Shown: positions 31,660-63,610 of the stretch, in pieces
Numbering within the stretch: the stretch's first letter is position 1
How the letters are laid out: the number at the start of each line of letters is the position of its first letter
Source: an uncultured Planctomycetales bacterium
GTDB taxonomy: Bacteria > Omnitrophota > Gorgyraeia > Zapsychrales > Fredricksoniimonadaceae
Length of the DNA stretch: 64,000 nucleotides
Assembly (NCBI GenBank): GCA_964572155.1
Contig: CAZNDZ010000001.1
Span: forward strand, 412,630 to 476,629
Direction: 5' to 3'
Program-made: the position numbers and the translations under genes
Notes under the pieces: model-generated
The model's input: only the letters and a program-made list of their open reading frames with translations
What the model was told of the DNA's origin: nothing
Databases searched by the model: none

Positions 31660-31732
31660 GCCGAGATAGCTCAGGTAGTAGAGCGCGGGCCTGAAAAGCC
31701 CGGCGTCGACAGTGCAAGTCTGTCTCTCGGCA
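31660..31732 (+). tRNA. tRNA-Phe (anticodon GAA) with non-canonical T-loop UGCAAGU and D-loop A18
   Basis: Cloverleaf folded by hand: acceptor GCCGAGA/TCTCGGC, anticodon loop CTGAAAA, 73 nt, near-identical to E. coli tRNA-Phe apart from the elbow. No encoded CCA. Confidence 0.75.
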
Positions 31733-31830
31733 CTTTTTTCCTCCCATCACAAATTCTTCAAAAAATAGTGAAACTTTTAAGCGCCTGTCCTTGTCTAAAT
31801 GATTGAAACAATCAAACCAAGGAGATTAAC

Positions 31831-34027: not shown

Positions 34028-34100
34028 GCTGGCGTAGCTCAGTTAGTAGAGCAGGGCATTCGTAATGCTCAGGCCGGGGGTGCAATTCCTCTCGCCAGCT
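34028..34100 (+). tRNA. tRNA-Thr (anticodon CGU) with non-canonical T-loop UGCAAUU and D-loop A18
   Basis: Hand-folded cloverleaf: acceptor GCTGGCG/CGCCAGC, anticodon loop TTCGTAA, 73 nt. Preceded by TTGACC-17-TATAAA. Confidence 0.65.
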
Positions 34101-45333: not shown

Positions 45334-45653
45334 CGCGGGGTGGAGCAGCCCGGTAGCTCGCCAGGCTCAGCACGTAACATGGGCGTCTAGTTGAGAAATC
45401 AATTAGAAGATTATCTGTCAAAGTCGGTGAAGCCTGAAAATGGTAATACCGAGCCAAGTTCCGATTACCTCAGAAATATTTAGGAAATCGGAAAAGGTGT
45501 AGAGACTAGATGGCAGACGTCCTCCTCGAAAGAGAGGATGAAGGTATAGTCCAGACCACAAACCGTGAACCCAACGTGGTTCATGGGCGGCGAAAGTCGT
45601 AGATGGTACGCATAACCTGGAGGTCATAGGTTCAAATCCTGTCCCCGCAACCA
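45334..45653 (+). tRNA. initiator tRNA-fMet (anticodon CAU) interrupted by a group I intron; exons 45334..45367 and 45611..45653, CCA encoded
   Basis: Exons join to CGCGGGGTGGAGCAGCCCGGTAGCTCGCCAGGCT|CATAACCTGGAGGTCATAGGTTCAAATCCTGTCCCCGCAACCA. This is almost identical to E. coli tRNA-fMet and has the C1xA72 initiator hallmark. Confidence 0.8.
45368..45610 (+). ncRNA. group I self-splicing intron (243 nt) in the anticodon loop of tRNA-fMet
   Basis: R-like element GTGTAGAGACTAGA (45497-45510). S-like element AAGGTATAGTCC (45541-45552) forming P7 (GACTA/TAGTC). P8-like hairpin CCTCCTC-GAAA-GAGAGG. The 5' exon ends in U and the intron ends in G (45610). No ORF inside. Confidence 0.65.
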
Positions 45654-56746: not shown

Positions 56747-57359
56747 GCGTTACATCTAGCGGTGCTTGACCTGTTTGCAGGGCATAGGCAGTGGCTTTGA
56801 TCGCCAATTGATTTTTTGCCAAACTTTCTTCAACATGCTGTTGCATGTTAAAGGCTAAGCCCTTAGCCTTACGCATCAAATCCCCACAAATCTTCGACGA
56901 CATAATGCTTTGAATGTTGAGGCGCATATCTGTGGCAGCCGCTTCTTTAAAAAAGCCTAAGGCCTTAGTGTAATCTTTTTGTCGGTAGTAAATCACCCCA
57001 AGGTTATAGGCGTAAGACCAAGCGTAAGGGTTGATGCTCTGTGCTTTCAAGAAGGCGCGAATGGCTGTGGCATCATTTCCGAGTGTGGCTTGATAAAATC
57101 CTTCTAAACCATGTGCGTCTGCAAGGTTAGGGGCATAGGCGATGATGCTCGTCGCATATTTATGCCATTGCGTAAGCCAATACGTTGAACATGGGGTTTG
57201 GTTGCCACGTTCAAGGCTAAACAGGTCTTGAGATTGTAAGAAGTTTGAACGTTCATTAAGTGTGTTGATGGCATAATGTCGACGACGATCCATGAAGCTA
57301 AGAATGATGATGGCACATAAAAGGATATTGAGGCATATGAGGGCTATTTTCTTTACCAT
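56727..57359 (-). CDS. membrane-anchored TPR-repeat protein
   Basis: N-terminal TM segment plus TPR repeats. Start chosen at the internal Met to limit overlap with the upstream gene. Confidence 0.45.
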   Translation of the reverse strand: MVKKIALICLNILLCAIIILSFMDRRRHYAINTLNERSNFLQSQDLFSLERGNQTPCSTYWLTQWHKYATSIIAYAPNLADAHGLEGFYQATLGNDATAIRAFLKAQSINPYAWSYAYNLGVIYYRQKDYTKALGFFKEAAATDMRLNIQSIMSSKICGDLMRKAKGLAFNMQQHVEESLAKNQLAIKATAYALQTGQAPLDVTLTLSLF

Positions 57360-58417
57360 AGGCGTTGCAGCACAACCAAGGTGCGCCAACCTCCCATCAT
57401 CAACACAAAAACGAGAACTTGATACAAAGCGATTTTGCTCCACACTTCTTTAGATGCGTTGAACAGTTGTTGCCAGATAACATTAAAGAAGATGATGCCC
57501 GTGGGCATTAAAAATAATAAATAGCGTGCGGATAGTTCAAAGCCAGCATTGTTTGTCGTGTGTTGCAAATATACAGAGAGTATTAATAAGCCGGAAAATC
57601 CCAAGAGAACGGAAATCCATAAAGTTAGCGGCAATACCCGACGCATAATGAATGTGCCCACTCCCAAGAACAAGATATTTTCGATTGAAACATTAGTTAG
57701 AATTAATCCAAGCCATTGATCTGGCAGTCGAAATGGGTATCTGGGTGCGTGCATGGCATAAAAAATGCCAATGACGATTGGCAAAATAAACGGGATGAAG
57801 AACTTTTTTCGAATAAACACCAATGTGAGTAACGTTTGAATCAAACCAAAACCTGAACATAAGCATAGTAGCCAGTGGGTTAAGGTAAGTTTCAGCCAAA
57901 AGCTTTTACTGTGATTTTTGAAGATAAAATATTCTAATAAGAGTAGGGTTTGCGCGCAGGTTAATAAGATCCATAAACTATACGGCCTATCTTGAGTCCA
58001 ATAGATCCACGTCGGAGTTGATGTTAAAAAGAGGCACAAGCTAAGTAAAGCGGCATAGATGTTGAAACGTTTCAGGAAATAATAAAAGCATAGGGTTAGG
58101 CTAAGCGCCATAAACACGACAGGCAGCAAGCGCATCCATATTTGGCTGTATGTTTCACATACATATTGTTCTTGCACCCACGCCGTTTTAAATTGAAAAC
58201 TTGTGATTTGACCTAAGGCTTTTTGCAACGTGTAAAACAGTGGAGCATTATTACCTTCATTGACTTTGCCACGGAGAATATCTATGTAGGAAATGTTTTG
58301 GACGCTTTGATGTTGACTGTAACTCTCGTCGTTTTCTATTGGGTTCTTGATGCTTAAAGTAAGCCCAAGCGCGCAAGACAAGACGAAGACGAAAAACGAC
58401 AGTAGGTAATGACGCAT
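57353..58417 (-). CDS. polytopic membrane protein, hypothetical (possible GT-C / polymerase-like)
   Basis: 354 aa, about 10 TM helices, no clear motif. Confidence 0.35.
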   Translation of the reverse strand: MRHYLLSFFVFVLSCALGLTLSIKNPIENDESYSQHQSVQNISYIDILRGKVNEGNNAPLFYTLQKALGQITSFQFKTAWVQEQYVCETYSQIWMRLLPVVFMALSLTLCFYYFLKRFNIYAALLSLCLFLTSTPTWIYWTQDRPYSLWILLTCAQTLLLLEYFIFKNHSKSFWLKLTLTHWLLCLCSGFGLIQTLLTLVFIRKKFFIPFILPIVIGIFYAMHAPRYPFRLPDQWLGLILTNVSIENILFLGVGTFIMRRVLPLTLWISVLLGFSGLLILSVYLQHTTNNAGFELSARYLLFLMPTGIIFFNVIWQQLFNASKEVWSKIALYQVLVFVLMMGGWRTLVVLQRLW

Positions 58418-59101
58418 TTATAAAGCCCTTATGTGAAGCGTAAGTTCCTGTAATGAAATATTGGGATTGCTTTCTAGACGTTTTAAAGTTTCTGCCAGTG
58501 CGGCGTAGTCTTGCTGTAAGCTTGCGATGACATTATACGACGGGTTAGCGCCTAAAATGTCTTGGTAAATCTTTGATGTGGCGATGAATTGAAGGGTTTG
58601 CTTAGGATCTTCGGCTAAAGTAATTTGCATGAGCTTGACCGCTTGGGTGATCTGATGTGCTTCCAAATACATGAGGCTAAGGCTGACATTGTTATAAAAA
58701 TACGTCGGGTTTAAATAAAATGACTTTTGAAAACTATCAAAGGCTTTTGCCCGATCGCCCTGTTTGTAATAACAAAATCCAAGCAGCGTATAACTTTCTG
58801 CCATCCAAGGCATGGCTTCGCTTAATTGTTGGTAATAATCGACGAGCTCGGGTGATTGAAAAGGGGTTTGTGCGTTTATGTTTGCATCCATAAATGTTTG
58901 ATACATTGCGGTTGTTGGCAAACTCATGTTGAGTTTTTTAATGGCGGTGTCATTCTTTTTTTCCATCAATTTGCGCGTTACTAACGAGGATGAGGTGGCG
59001 TTTGGCGCAGGCAGGGGGCGTTTTAACCAAAAAACAGCGATCACACATAAGCAGATCCAGACGAGGGGCAGCGCAATATATTTTTTACTTGGGATTTGCA
59101 T
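58418..59101 (-). CDS. membrane-anchored TPR-repeat protein
   Basis: N-terminal TM segment plus TPR repeats; 227 aa. Confidence 0.45.
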   Translation of the reverse strand: MQIPSKKYIALPLVWICLCVIAVFWLKRPLPAPNATSSSLVTRKLMEKKNDTAIKKLNMSLPTTAMYQTFMDANINAQTPFQSPELVDYYQQLSEAMPWMAESYTLLGFCYYKQGDRAKAFDSFQKSFYLNPTYFYNNVSLSLMYLEAHQITQAVKLMQITLAEDPKQTLQFIATSKIYQDILGANPSYNVIASLQQDYAALAETLKRLESNPNISLQELTLHIRAL

Positions 59102-59124
59102 ATTTCTTTTTATAATACCACCAT

Positions 59125-60498
59125 ATGAAACGACCGTGGGTTTGGACAGTGCTGTGTTTAAGTGCCGTGTGGGTTTTTTACAACGCTGTTTTTTCTGGCA
59201 CTATCCTTTATTTTGATGCGTTTAGTTATGATAGCTTGGGGCATTTAATAACTCAAGGAAAGTTTGCCGACTATTTGAGGCATGGGCCAACCCGCGAGCC
59301 ACTTTATCCCATCTTTGTAGCTCTTAACATGTCCTTGGCACAGTTCCTTCATCTGCCCTACACACAAATTTTGTTATTAACCCAAGGTTTGATTTTATTG
59401 ATCACGCAACTGATGTTGGCTCGCATTTTTGAGCGCATCAAACTTGCCGATGCGGCAGCGGCATTGTTGCTTGCCTATTTTGTGATATCTCCGACGGTGA
59501 TAAGATCATCGCTAATCGTTTATTCTGAAATCATCACCTACCCGTTGATGGTCTTGGTCTGTTGGGTATCGATCAACGCATGGCAAAGTAAGATCAACAT
59601 ACAAGCAAAGCACGCAGCATATCTGGGCTTTAGTTTCTTGCCGTTGGTTTTTACAAAAGGTATCTTTGAAATCATCGCCCCACTGTATATTGTTCTATTT
59701 TTCTTATGTCTAAGCCGTCGTTGTTCTCCAAAACGCACGATGATCTTTGCTATCATTGCGCTCGGATGTTTTTTAATCCCTGTAAATGCCTATAAGCTCC
59801 TAAATAAAATGTCACATGGTCATTTTACCTTTACCAGCCGCGGCAGTGCTGCCCTATACGGATCTGCATCCCGACGAGTTTTACCGACTAGTCCCCAAGA
59901 AGATTTAGCTCAAAAGCTTTATGTCTTCCCAGATAAATTATTTTGCCAAGCACGCGTTGGTCAGGCCGCGTGTGATCATTGGTTTTATGCATTGTCAGAT
60001 CAGCTAGGCGGTGTCAAAGAGGTGGCTTTGCGACAAATCTATACCTCGACGGCAGCGGTAGATAAGGCATTAACACATCAAGCTCTTCATTTAATGTTGC
60101 AGCATCCTATTAAAACGATCAATGGCATGTTCTGGGAGGGAGCTAAATTATTATTCTGGGAATATCCGTCGTGGGGTATGGTGATCTTGCCGCGCGATGT
60201 TAGGCAATTTTATGACCAGCCAATCTTATACCCAATGTTCCTTTATGGTGTAAATGGTATGAGCGTATTGTTTTTCTTGAGCGCTTTTATTTGTGTTGTT
60301 TTTAATTGGCGTAAATTTTTGAGTGCCAAAACAGAGGCTTTAAATTTTTTAGTATTGTCATTTGGTTTGAGCTTTATTTATATCGTGATGCATTCGCTTT
60401 TCTTTTTAAACGAACGCAATGCCTTACCCCTTGTACCTGTCTTCCTATTAATGTATGGCGCTTTCATAAAAAGTGCATTTCAAGCAAGGTCCACATGA
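59125..60498 (+). CDS. GT-C-fold glycosyltransferase (ArnT/PMT family 39/83-like) membrane protein
   Basis: About 12 TM helices; the first periplasmic loop with FDAFSYDSLGH...REPLYPIFVAL resembles the PMT/ArnT signature region. Confidence 0.45.
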   Translation: MKRPWVWTVLCLSAVWVFYNAVFSGTILYFDAFSYDSLGHLITQGKFADYLRHGPTREPLYPIFVALNMSLAQFLHLPYTQILLLTQGLILLITQLMLARIFERIKLADAAAALLLAYFVISPTVIRSSLIVYSEIITYPLMVLVCWVSINAWQSKINIQAKHAAYLGFSFLPLVFTKGIFEIIAPLYIVLFFLCLSRRCSPKRTMIFAIIALGCFLIPVNAYKLLNKMSHGHFTFTSRGSAALYGSASRRVLPTSPQEDLAQKLYVFPDKLFCQARVGQAACDHWFYALSDQLGGVKEVALRQIYTSTAAVDKALTHQALHLMLQHPIKTINGMFWEGAKLLFWEYPSWGMVILPRDVRQFYDQPILYPMFLYGVNGMSVLFFLSAFICVVFNWRKFLSAKTEALNFLVLSFGLSFIYIVMHSLFFLNERNALPLVPVFLLMYGAFIKSAFQARST

Positions 60499-60770
60499 AC
60501 CCTTTAAAAGCGTATGAAGCGTGGCAGCAAAAACAGCATGAACAATGGGAAGCCAAGTGCGGTCGCTGTGGTGCTTGTTGTGGAGCATTCGACGGCGACC
60601 CTTGTGAACACTTGCGCAAAGGGGATCAAGGCTATTTTTGTCAAATATACGACACCCGTTTTGGCTTACACAAGACCGTGAGTGGGAAAGACATCAACTG
60701 TGTGCCTATTCGAAAGATTTTACATTCAAAATGGCCTGGGGACGAGTGTTGTAGATATAAAAAGACATGA
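60495..60770 (+). CDS. small Cys-rich protein, CxxCxxCC (YkgJ/UPF0153-like) putative Fe/Zn-binding
   Basis: CGRCGACCG...C...C pattern; 91 aa; translationally coupled to the GT-C gene. Confidence 0.45.
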   Translation: MNPLKAYEAWQQKQHEQWEAKCGRCGACCGAFDGDPCEHLRKGDQGYFCQIYDTRFGLHKTVSGKDINCVPIRKILHSKWPGDECCRYKKT

Positions 60771-60780
60771 TCATAACGTA

Positions 60781-60830
60781 CCGGGGATTGTGTTGTGTAA
60801 TGGGGTTCTTCGTAAAGGAAGGTTTAATCA
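60781..60830 (+). pseudogene. orphan fragment homologous to the 3' end of the LamG gene (copy of 61739..61789)
   Basis: CCGGGGATTGTGTTGTGTAATGGGGTTCTTCGTAAAGGAAGGTTTAATCA versus CCGGGGATTGTGCTACGTAATGGGGTGGTTCGGAATGGGAGGATTAATCA. In frame it encodes PGIVLCNGVLRKGRFNQ. Confidence 0.4.
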
Positions 60831-60928
60831 ATTATTCCGTCAATTAATATGAACGATTCATCAACCGTAGCATTGACAATGGGCATACAATGTAGGAAGC
60901 TTGCGAAGATTTATTTAGGATGTGAGCA

Positions 60929-61792
60929 ATGAAAAAATCTATGCCTAACCAACCAACCAATGTAGATTTTGTAATACAAAAAACCATCTGTAGAGACGCG
61001 ATTTCCGCCGGAGAAGGATCAGCCTTTCGCTGGTATCGTGTCTTTCTTATGGTGGCCCTTTTGGTGAATATTATTTTTTGTCGTATTCCCAATGCCCATG
61101 CAGATTTGCGTAACGGTTTGGTTGGGTGGTGGAAGTTTGACGAGGTAAGCGGAAATGCCATTGATTCTAGTGGGCAGAGTAATACGGGGACACCGAATGG
61201 AACAACAATAGCTTCTAATTGCAAAAAGAGGGGATGTCGTCAGTTTAATGGGACTAGTGATTATATCAACTTGGGCACAATACTCCCGTCTACGCAATCA
61301 ACGATGTCAATTTCTGCTTGGATAAAATGGGATGGTGGTGGCAGCGGGTTAATGCGCGTGATAGGTCGAAAGAACAATGCCCAAATCAATTGGGCGTATG
61401 GTTTAGTCGTAAACACTGCAGGAAGCATTACTTTTGAGCGAGCTAGAAATACCTTAGCTGTTGGGGATAATTCTATAACCAGCTCAGAAACTCTTGTTGC
61501 TAATCAGTGGTTTCACATCGTATGTGTACAGCAAAGCGACACTGCTTTAAGTATTTTTGTGAATGGTACGCGTACGGATAAAGTGGTAACAACTGGAACA
61601 TGGACACCAGATGCAGGTGAATCGCTTTATATAGGAAGATTTAGTTCGTCAATAACACAATATTTCTCTGGATTTATGGACGATGTCCGAATTTACAACC
61701 GCGCGTTGACCGCTCAAGAGGTGTATGATCTTTATATCCCGGGGATTGTGCTACGTAATGGGGTGGTTCGGAATGGGAGGATTAATCAGTAA
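60929..61792 (+). CDS. LamG-like (concanavalin A-like lectin/glucanase) domain protein
   Basis: LVGWWKFDEVSGNAIDSSG...WFHIV...DDVRIYNRAL matches the Laminin_G_3 pattern; N-terminal TM/signal. Confidence 0.65.
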   Translation: MKKSMPNQPTNVDFVIQKTICRDAISAGEGSAFRWYRVFLMVALLVNIIFCRIPNAHADLRNGLVGWWKFDEVSGNAIDSSGQSNTGTPNGTTIASNCKKRGCRQFNGTSDYINLGTILPSTQSTMSISAWIKWDGGGSGLMRVIGRKNNAQINWAYGLVVNTAGSITFERARNTLAVGDNSITSSETLVANQWFHIVCVQQSDTALSIFVNGTRTDKVVTTGTWTPDAGESLYIGRFSSSITQYFSGFMDDVRIYNRALTAQEVYDLYIPGIVLRNGVVRNGRINQ

Positions 61793-61884
61793 AAGAATAC
61801 AGTTTTTAGATAGCGCTACCTTGAAAAGTGCTAAAAATAGGATATACTTCAAGAGTAGTCAGAAAACGCTCTTTTTAGCAGTTA

Positions 61885-61975
61885 AACGATAAAGGCAAAC
61901 CCAGAGTAATCTGGGGACGCAAAGCCATGGATCCTTATAAGTCTCAAGGACAGCCAGGTTACCGAAACCGCAAGC
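61885..61975 (+). promoter_or_regulatory. c-di-GMP-I (GEMM) riboswitch aptamer
   Basis: GGCAAACC-[CCCAGA GTAA TCTGGG hairpin with GNRA loop]-GACGCAAAGCC-[P3 hairpin TCCTT...AAGGA]-GCCAGGTTACCGA. Matches the GEMM consensus blocks GGCAAACC / GGACGCAAAGCC / CC.GGUUACCG. About 70 nt of expression platform precedes ATG 62043. Confidence 0.75.
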
Positions 61976-62042
61976 TTTTTATGCCCCTTGGGTTTGTAAG
62001 GTAATCCCTGCTGTCTATGAATGGACCTGGCAGGAGAGGGAT

Positions 62043-63560
62043 ATGAAAAGTTTCGTTGCAGGTTTAATTGTTATCACAGTGCTGATTGTTGACATCTTTC
62101 CATTACGCGCTCAAGTTCAACCTGGATTTAACGTTGACCCCGCGGTCATCAAATGGTTGGATCACAACGTAAGTCCTGTTACCAAACTTCCTTATAGTTT
62201 CTATATCCCCAAACAACATCAGCATCAAATCTTTCAACAAATGGATGATGGTGGTCTCGTCAATGGCATCATCGAACGCATGATCACCCATAAAGGCCTC
62301 GATATTTACGACGGGGCTGTTTATCAAATTGTTCAAACCATGCTTGCAGGTGTTAACAATATTAAGCAAGCACAACTACCTTTAGAATATTATTGGGATG
62401 GCGCTGTTGGTGAGATGTGGAATGTGCGCGCCGGTTATCCAATTAGCAATTACATTTATGATGCTGCCAATCCAAGCCGCGTGAGCTCAAATATTAATGC
62501 ATTGGGACAACGTGGTTTCATCTTTCGTATTATTAATGCGGATGGTGAGTATTTAGTTACCGACCCCAAGAATGGTCAAAAGACATTTGCTGGTTTCCCC
62601 CAAGAAGATCGTTTGCACTGGGTTGATTGGAAGCCCGTTGCCGGTGAAAATGCGTGGGTCGCCATTGCTGCCATGCAGTTATATCACCAAAAATATTTTG
62701 ATAAGGAAAAAGGTGTTTATGTTTCTAATCCCCAGAGCGTTGAACTGAAACTAGCCAAAGAAATAGCCCGTGCAGCCATGATCTTGCAAGCTGATTGCGG
62801 CGGCATCCGTATGGCGCCATTGGGAACATTTCGTAATTTAGACGCAAGCGAGGCAAGAGATTTTACAACCACCAATTGGTGGTTTAATCATATCTCAACA
62901 GAAAACAACATTTCATGGTACGCTGCCTTTCGCATGTTGTATCAGGTGACAGGTGATGAGGTATATAAGAAAGCCATGCAAGGCATTGAAAAATATATGC
63001 TTTTTGTCTGGGATAAAGATAAAGGATACTTTCATCAAGGTGCGTATCAAGTTTCAGGGTGGTGGAAGAAAAGCACAGAGCAATTTGCTTTAGATGTGCA
63101 AACATGGGCGATTTGCGCGTTTGGACCTGGGCAAATTGATGCGTGGTTGGGTGAAGGAGCAGCAATGCGTTTGTGGCAAATCTCGAAAGAGCGCTCAGGA
63201 GTTTTTAATGCACAAGGCCAAATTCAAGGAGTTGGTTTTACCGATGAACATGATCGTTTATCTGTGGAGTGGACCGCAGGTGCAATGACAGCGTTGGATG
63301 CGATGAGCAAGTATTATCAAGAAAGCAGCCCTGAATTATCGCAACTTGCTCAAAATGATCGATTAAGCATGCGCCGTAGCATTGAAGCACTACGTGCAAC
63401 GCTGCCAGAGGGTCAAGCGGCGTATAGCTATTCCTCAAAACGCGGATGGATTCCATTTGGCTGGAATTCACACGTTCCCGAAGTCATGAGCCTTGCATCA
63501 ACGGGCTGGATGGTCTTTGTTGATGCGGGGGTCAATCCATTCTGGTTATTAAAAAATTGA
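62043..63560 (+). CDS. secreted protein of unknown function (possibly alpha/alpha-toroid glycoside-hydrolase-like)
   Basis: Signal peptide; 505 aa; aromatic-rich helical repeats (ENAWVAIAAMQLY, NNISWYAAFRML, QTWAICAFG). The functional call is speculative. Confidence 0.45.
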   Translation: MKSFVAGLIVITVLIVDIFPLRAQVQPGFNVDPAVIKWLDHNVSPVTKLPYSFYIPKQHQHQIFQQMDDGGLVNGIIERMITHKGLDIYDGAVYQIVQTMLAGVNNIKQAQLPLEYYWDGAVGEMWNVRAGYPISNYIYDAANPSRVSSNINALGQRGFIFRIINADGEYLVTDPKNGQKTFAGFPQEDRLHWVDWKPVAGENAWVAIAAMQLYHQKYFDKEKGVYVSNPQSVELKLAKEIARAAMILQADCGGIRMAPLGTFRNLDASEARDFTTTNWWFNHISTENNISWYAAFRMLYQVTGDEVYKKAMQGIEKYMLFVWDKDKGYFHQGAYQVSGWWKKSTEQFALDVQTWAICAFGPGQIDAWLGEGAAMRLWQISKERSGVFNAQGQIQGVGFTDEHDRLSVEWTAGAMTALDAMSKYYQESSPELSQLAQNDRLSMRRSIEALRATLPEGQAAYSYSSKRGWIPFGWNSHVPEVMSLASTGWMVFVDAGVNPFWLLKN

Positions 63561-63610
63561 TCAAAATATTGACACCTATTAAATTATTTGTATAATCACA
63601 TGCGAATATC

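Follow-up and report, generated by a model that had tools for sequence, protein, structure and literature searches.

GEMM-I (c-di-GMP-I) riboswitches consist of two adjacent hairpins, with a conserved internal loop and a GNRA cap in the first hairpin and an AAA linker between the two (PMC1950547). GEMM RNAs are known to precede genes for chitinases and carbohydrate-binding proteins (PMC1950547). In the Vc2 representative, G20 contacts one guanine of the ligand, cyclic di-GMP (c-di-GMP), C92 forms a Watson-Crick pair with the other, and A47 is located at the ligand (PMC5888326); rare variants of the class sense cyclic AMP-GMP (c-AMP-GMP; PMC7266159). Here we describe a riboswitch of this class and the gene for a 505-amino-acid (aa) protein that lies 3' of it, both within 64,000 nucleotides (nt) of DNA from an uncultured bacterium of the phylum Omnitrophota (assembly GCA_964572155.1, contig CAZNDZ010000001.1, positions 412,630 to 476,629). 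This whole stretch is called the window below, and its features are collected in Table 1. The unit is probably a monocistronic mRNA in which a canonical c-di-GMP-I aptamer and a translational expression platform precede the coding region of a Sec-exported (alpha/alpha)6-barrel protein that likely acts on glycans as a hydrolase or related enzyme.

An Rfam cmscan of the whole 64-kb window returned a single riboswitch, which scored 69.0 bits (gathering score 59) with an E value of 3.1e-14. A search restricted to the 5' untranslated region (UTR) gave the aptamer an E value of 1.6e-16, and our own covariance model R1 scored it at 92 bits. The two-hairpin architecture, the GGCAAAC / GGACGC internal loop, the GNRA cap and the AAA linker are all present. 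The original prediction, made from the DNA letters alone, had named a GEMM-I aptamer with three conserved blocks and a GNRA-capped hairpin; the blocks and hairpin can be read directly from the sequence, and the class assignment is upheld by the Rfam score and by covariation in relatives. It had also proposed a search with the Rfam model RF01051 as a check, and here the match holds at the level of the clan, above the gathering score, but the top model is RF03167 (c-di-GMP-I-GGC). Compensatory changes occur in 11 of 18 pairs in a MAFFT alignment of 18 sequences. In a 48-sequence alignment (A3), which is fitted to the covariance model, 13 of 18 pairs have double (compensatory) changes and 96.2% of cells are paired, compared to 79.5% in 500 shuffles, none of which reaches this level, and 26–51% in slid-partner controls. 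The first-hairpin stem of the closest relative, L004, is AUCGCC/GGCGAU, wholly different from that in the window yet complementary. These results indicate that the window RNA is very likely a c-di-GMP-class riboswitch.

Close homologues of the 505-aa protein number more than 200; they are without exception 'hypothetical proteins' of Candidatus Omnitrophota metagenome-assembled genomes, and one identical copy occurs on a 1.34-Mb contig. We collected 77 genomic loci encoding relatives, 71 with enough upstream DNA, and a covariance model built from 18 aptamers was run against all loci. An aptamer lies on the coding strand, about 0–375 nt 5' of the start codon, in 42 of the 71. Every locus with a protein identity of at least 49% has the aptamer, with one exception, and below 47% almost none has it; riboswitch and gene are therefore inherited as a unit of one orthologous group.

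We infer that transcription starts near 61855, 3' of a sigma-70-type promoter; the block GCGCTACCTTGAAA...TATACTT is kept in L004, L081, L082 and L083. The 505-aa gene is a monocistronic unit because the next gene, which encodes an Rrf2 regulator (start 63611; Pfam), is driven by its own perfect promoter, which starts 9 nt past the stop codon of the 505-aa open reading frame (ORF). No intrinsic terminator was found 3' of the window aptamer. The aptamer ends 76 nt 5' of the ATG, and the translational platform of 75 nt was compared with those of L004, L081, L082 and L083 (64–87 nt over the five sequences). This platform holds two mutually exclusive complementarities. A sequestor segment with an anti-Shine-Dalgarno (anti-SD) sequence can pair with 62031-62064 (RNAduplex −23.0 kcal/mol); shuffles equal this strength in 9 of 300 cases for the window and in 1–5 of 300 for the four relatives. 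Its pairing changes along with the N-terminal codons, from CUUUUUAU:AUGAAAAG in the window to ACAAACUUUUG:CAAAAGUUUGU in L004, and GGAGAGGGA(A/U)AUG is identical in all four relatives. An anti-aptamer segment can pair instead with the 3' half of the aptamer (−24.1 kcal/mol, 2 of 300 shuffles as good), and the predicted duplexes of relatives have −25 to −31 kcal/mol (0 of 300 shuffles). The platform also has a hairpin whose 5' arm overlaps the anti-aptamer segment and whose 3' arm abuts the SD. A hairpin abutting the SD had been predicted as a translational platform; it is indeed present as part of a conserved platform with no terminator, but that platform is more elaborate than a single hairpin. 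Control is very probably translational.

When the aptamer is folded, the minimum free energy (MFE) structure of all five sequences has the sequestor helix over the SD and AUG, with the SD-adjacent hairpin nested inside. When the anti-aptamer pairing is formed, a local hairpin (ACAAAC/GUUUGU in relatives) closes around the sequestor, and this state is the unconstrained MFE of L004. The two states suggest a switch. If c-di-GMP is absent, the anti-aptamer segment would pair with the 3' half of the aptamer and the sequestor, with its anti-SD, would be held in the loop of the local hairpin, so that SD and AUG would be free. If c-di-GMP is bound, the aptamer would retain its 3' half and the anti-aptamer segment would instead form the SD-adjacent hairpin, which would bring the sequestor onto the SD, the start codon and the codons next to it and block translation. 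Cells would then make the enzyme when c-di-GMP is low and repress it when c-di-GMP is high and matrix is being built. Independent support for this direction comes from at least nine orthologues with minimal leaders, in which the start codon lies four nt past the aptamer and pairs with the 5' flank, extending the P1 helix. The extended P1 covaries (CAUU:AAUG, CAUA:UAUG, CGUU:AAUG), which predicts that ligand-stabilised P1 must occlude the AUG in these leaders. We lean, with modest confidence, towards c-di-GMP turning translation off.

Past its predicted signal peptide, the product has an (alpha/alpha)6 barrel fold, and its family carries no annotation. The N-terminus (MKSFVAGLIVITVLIVDIFPLRA, followed by Q after the cleavage site) has a basic n-region, a hydrophobic h-region and small residues at −3 and −1, it lacks a lipobox Cys, and the 12-mer hydropathy is 3.2; the call is a heuristic on n-, h- and c-regions with an h-region of 10–15 residues as its criterion. 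This layout recurs in 27 of 29 homologues, typically as VWA or xxA before the Q, in agreement with the secretion signal that had been proposed. The glycoside-hydrolase-like toroid that had been suggested as a possibility agrees with the (alpha/alpha)6 barrel fold, but comparison with defined glycoside hydrolase (GH), CAZy or Pfam families (GH8, GH76, GH15, AGE and others) gave no significant profile match. Invariant acidic residues are D90, D195, E202, E240, E287, D351, E402, E409 and D494. A full-library profile search recovered 809 relatives, many of them embedded in very large proteins. In the fusions that were sampled, the barrel domain is joined to dockerin, FN3, FG-GAP and the synthase domain of a processive GT2; a further Pfam scan of multi-domain relatives added little. 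The fusions fit an extracytoplasmic, glycan-active role, and the product is probably a glycan-active exported enzyme. The c-di-GMP-gated remodelling of biofilm or matrix that had been suggested is a hypothesis about what such an enzyme may do.

Several results weigh against this overall interpretation. Constrained partition functions gave no clean separation of the two states (probability that the window SD is unpaired, 0.28 versus 0.38), and in L081 the difference in SD accessibility between constrained states was reversed; the basis of the proposed OFF direction is therefore the topology of the platform together with the minimal-leader relatives. No GGDEF, EAL or HD-GYP gene was found in the 64-kb window by a motif search. 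The 29 family members had no Pfam match even at E up to 10, NCBIfam gave no match, and a PDB profile search gave no relevant match; in addition, epimerases, lyases and terpene cyclases are likewise built on (alpha/alpha)6 barrels. Finally, the best Rfam model is that of the GGC variant, for which we know of no assigned ligand.

The opposite logic, in which ligand turns translation on and the enzyme is made together with a matrix polysaccharide, in the way that BcsZ or PssZ accompany their synthases, is less likely. It can draw on the SD unpaired probabilities, which fail to separate the states, on L081, where SD and AUG are more open when the aptamer is folded, and on one orthologue located directly 3' of pgaB-like, GT2 and PgaD genes. 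In that region of one metagenome-assembled genome (L002:1-2248, same region as L005), the genes encode a PgaB-like deacetylase/GHL13 protein, a GT2 synthase and PgaD, together a poly-N-acetylglucosamine-type exopolysaccharide system. ON logic conflicts with the folding of the platform alone, which sequesters SD and AUG in 5 of 5 close relatives once the aptamer is closed, and with the AUG lying within ligand-stabilised P1 in at least nine minimal-leader orthologues. A further group of orthologues (group 2: L028, L033, L045 and L060) has leaders with intrinsic terminators rather than SD sequestration. The 5' arm of these terminators can pair with aptamer sequence, which is suggestive and would again mean OFF, a weak point that comes from manual inspection and truncated folds.

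For the product, a reading other than glycoside hydrolase (a polysaccharide lyase, transglycosylase or cyclase, epimerase, or non-catalytic glycan-binding or scaffold (alpha/alpha)6 protein) is rather unlikely. It would account for the lack of a sequence-family match, and P0134, a GT2 fusion, is similar to architectures that combine a synthase with a processing domain. AGE epimerases and terpene cyclases act in the cytoplasm or in membranes, unlike the 505-aa product with its predicted export. The many invariant Asp, Glu and Trp residues are typical of glycan-active sites, and fusion to dockerin or FN3 is typical of carbohydrate-active enzymes that work outside the cell.

The identity of the ligand was considered at the level of single contact positions, with Vc2 numbering read from the structure-annotated cmscan alignment, where G21-C46 / C22-G45 correspond to 61895-61896 with 61919-61920. 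The RF03167 consensus GACGC-G-AAgCc corresponds to GACGC-A-AAGCC in the window, with A instead of G at position 47; position 91 is A in the window and G in the consensus. We take 'GGC' to denote positions 20, 47 and 92, in line with the model consensus. The window has the canonical G20/A47/C92 triplet and therefore lacks G47, the defining feature of the GGC variant (RF03167), which was rejected. The c-AMP-GMP type (GEMM-Ib) was also rejected: these riboswitches of Geobacter carry A at position 20, and the window has G at 61894.

The cmscan output keeps only the best-scoring member of a clan (here CL00126), and one further clan member also passes its gathering score on the window aptamer; this is very probably RF01051, whose gathering score is 35. 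Among related leaders, RF03167 is the top model (62–73 bits) where the second hairpin is short, and RF01051 (58–69 bits) where it is longer and of the receptor type. Model choice follows overall architecture and not the binding site, because all 48 related aptamers have A47 yet are split between RF03167 and RF01051. That the aptamer is a specificity variant, sensing a GGC-class ligand or 3'3'-cyclic GMP-AMP in the manner of GEMM-Ib, is very unlikely: RF03167 is the top model, above its gathering threshold, and A20, C20 or U92 in some orthologue leaders suggest specificity drift in the lineage, but the window has A47 (G in the GGC consensus) together with G20 and C92, A47 is invariant in the related aptamers whichever model they score best on, and L048, with an architecture similar to that of the window, reaches 64 bits on RF01051. 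The window switch appears, from its predicted binding site, to be an ordinary c-di-GMP sensor and a fresh instance of a well-known riboswitch type. An automatic 'GGC variant' label on it would mislead, and automated annotation of riboswitches and their ligands needs to reckon with such labelling of canonical aptamers by Rfam clan competition.

The orthologue leaders with departures at the contact positions are L043:3714-3804, L060:1597-1687 and L036:3699-3783 (A20), L034:3666-3754 and L037:3709-3799 (C20), and L064:3813-3904 and L020:3600-3694 (U92). Changes at positions 20 and 92 with an invariant A47 suggest that cyclic-dinucleotide specificity may be altered in some Omnitrophota.

The aptamer core also varies by insertion. 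Over 2.1 kb, contig L001 matches the window with 100% identity apart from an exact 83-nt insertion (L001:30-112) between 61918 and 61919, that is, between C44 and G45 in Vc2 numbering. No further copies of this insertion occur in the window or the collected loci, and Rfam recognised nothing in it. Homologous two-hairpin insertions of 45–110 nt occur at the same site in at least 11 other orthologue leaders, and both hairpins covary. The insertion makes the first hairpin a multi-helix junction, and Rfam models largely miss such forms. It may represent an undescribed structural subclass of GEMM-I that exists as a presence/absence polymorphism within a species; if it forms a functional new subclass or adds a second input, a classic riboswitch class would have gained a new variant. 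That the aptamer match is a decayed relic or chance resemblance and the gene is constitutive is extremely improbable, and effectively refuted by the comparative data: the insertion in a strain with 100% identical flanks could be read as tolerated disruption of the core, but it is itself a conserved, covarying two-hairpin module in many orthologues rather than random damage, the match has E 3e-14, the conserved core nucleotides are all intact, and the aptamer is kept 5' of essentially every orthologue with compensatory changes.

The upstream neighbours (58418-61792) are context and lie outside the riboswitch unit. A TPR/GT-C/LamG neighbourhood had been predicted, and it is present, with the TPR and Laminin_G_3 proteins identified by Pfam and the glycosyltransferase by its GT-C fold. 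A 354-aa ORF (57353-58417, minus strand), encoding an unannotated polytopic membrane protein, adjoins the TPR gene. The synteny of TPR, GT-C and small Cys-rich ORF is common to L004, L082 and L083, all three without the LamG gene. This GT-C neighbourhood is limited to a close clade, and distant orthologues lie beside pgaBCD-like genes or rRNA operons; in group 2 (e.g., L033:232-3615), the unit is immediately 3' of 23S-5S rRNA, then tRNA. The neighbours thus vary among orthologues, and the riboswitch is therefore the only constant partner of the gene. A BacA gene occurs 3' of the riboswitch-gene unit in the L002/L005 region, and in relatives COX2 and COX1 genes come after the Rrf2 regulator gene. 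At L082:5189-5229, 3' of a DUF481 gene and about 1.2 kb past the orthologue, there is another aptamer of this class, truncated by the contig end.

Two observations elsewhere in the window concern tRNA genes. An initiator-type tRNA (CGCGGGG...CCCCGCAACCA) at 45335-45650 has a group I intron (45358-45569; Rfam RF00028, 74.9 bits) within the anticodon loop and was not called by ARAGORN. The tRNA-Phe(GAA) at 31660-31733 and tRNA-Thr(CGU) at 34028-34100 have T-loops UGCAAGU and UGCAAUU, respectively, with G in place of the near-universal U55; the T-loop of the nearby intron-containing tRNA is normal (UUCAAAU).

Table 1. Coordinates of the riboswitch unit, its neighbours and the insertion-bearing leaders (window positions unless a locus is named)
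Feature	Position	Strand	Basis or remark
Sigma-70-type promoter TTGAAA, 16-nt spacer, TATACT	61821-61848	+	Promoter scan, 10/12 matches
−10 hexamer TATACT	61843-61848	+	Promoter scan
Possible extended P1	61878-61883 with 61965-61970	+	Pairing
c-di-GMP-I (GEMM-I) aptamer	61885-61967	+	Rfam RF03167, own covariance model, covariation in 18 and 48 relatives
Conserved block GGCAAACC	61894-61901	+	Sequence
G equivalent to Vc2 G20	61894	+	cmscan structure line; G in 39/48 relatives
First hairpin stem CCCAGA/UCUGGG	61900-61915	+	Sequence; all six pairs covary in relatives
GNRA (GYRA-type) tetraloop GUAA capping first hairpin	61906-61909	+	Sequence
Conserved block GGACGCAAAGCC	61915-61926	+	Sequence
AAA linker	61921-61923	+	Sequence; invariant in 48 relatives
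A equivalent to Vc2 A47	61921	+	cmscan alignment; A in 48/48 relatives
Conserved block CCAGGTTACCGA	61954-61965	+	Sequence
C equivalent to Vc2 C92	61962	+	cmscan alignment; C in 45/47 relatives
Sequestor segment, including anti-SD CCCCUU (61984-61989)	61967-61990	+	Complementary to SD, AUG and first codons
Anti-aptamer segment AGGUAAUCCCUGCUGUC	61999-62015	+	Complementary to aptamer 3' half, 61941-61964
SD-adjacent hairpin CCUGC (62007-62011) / GCAGG (62030-62034)	62007-62034	+	Sequence
Shine-Dalgarno GGAGAGGG	62033-62040	+	Sequence; ATG at 62043
ORF, 505 aa	62043-63560	+	ATG to stop
Sec-type signal peptide, residues 1-23	62043-62111	+	Predicted cleavage between LRA and Q
Consensus promoter TTGACA, 16-nt spacer, TATAAT	63569-63596	+	Promoter scan, 12/12 matches
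TPR protein	58418-59101	-	Pfam
GT-C-fold polytopic membrane glycosyltransferase, 457 aa	59125-60498		GT-C fold recognised; no sequence-family match
91-aa Cys-rich protein, CGRCGACC motif, conserved	60495-60770		Overlaps GT-C ORF by 4 nt
LamG/Laminin_G_3 protein	60929-61792		Pfam
Leader with insertion	L005:3863-3998		
Leader with insertion	L006:3784-3918		
Leader with insertion	L007:3803-3924		
Leader with insertion	L008:3743-3873		
Leader with insertion	L009:3751-3913		
Leader with insertion	L010:3757-3888		
Leader with insertion	L013:3879-3998		
Leader with insertion	L014:3860-3989		
Leader with insertion	L026:3620-3832		
Leader with insertion	L029:3770-3909		
Leader with insertion	L062:3605-3771		

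Second-messenger outputs are almost unexplored in the uncultivated phylum Omnitrophota, and in the literature we found no link between Omnitrophota, c-di-GMP riboswitches and the 505-aa protein family. The analysis assigns a regulatory signal (c-di-GMP), a likely cellular location and a likely activity class (exported glycan-active enzyme) to a conserved family of 'hypothetical proteins'. The 48 orthologous leaders have three platform designs, with the AUG inside P1, a long SD/AUG sequestor or an intrinsic terminator; together with the optional insertion, these designs amount to a natural experiment in rewiring one aptamer. Tentatively, the riboswitch-gene pair could be the ancestral and main RNA-level cyclic-dinucleotide output in a large Omnitrophota clade, controlling the founder of an undescribed glycoside-hydrolase-like family, with the GEMM-I scaffold diversifying in the orthologous leader.

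Compared to Vc2 and RF01051, the window RNA has the same two hairpins, GGCAAAC...GGACGC loop, GNRA tetraloop and AAA linker, the same G20, A47 and C92, and a like position in the 5' UTR of a gene with extracellular function. It differs in its GUAA (GYRA) loop, its short second hairpin and the absence of the 11-nt tetraloop receptor, a GYRA-loop, receptor-less GEMM type that has already been described (PMC1950547). It also differs in its host phylum, Omnitrophota, and in a regulated gene family that is new to the known regulon. The compact architecture is common to the window RNA and RF03167, which differ at positions 47 and 91, and the scaffold is common to GEMM-Ib of Geobacter, from which the window differs by its G20. 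The predicted product is 9–15% identical to the six-hairpin glycosidases MmpH (PDB 7qsj), GH76 alpha-1,6-mannanases, the GH8-type CPF_2247 (3ren) and PssZ (6r2m), and has about 150 residues more than these (alpha/alpha)6 enzymes.

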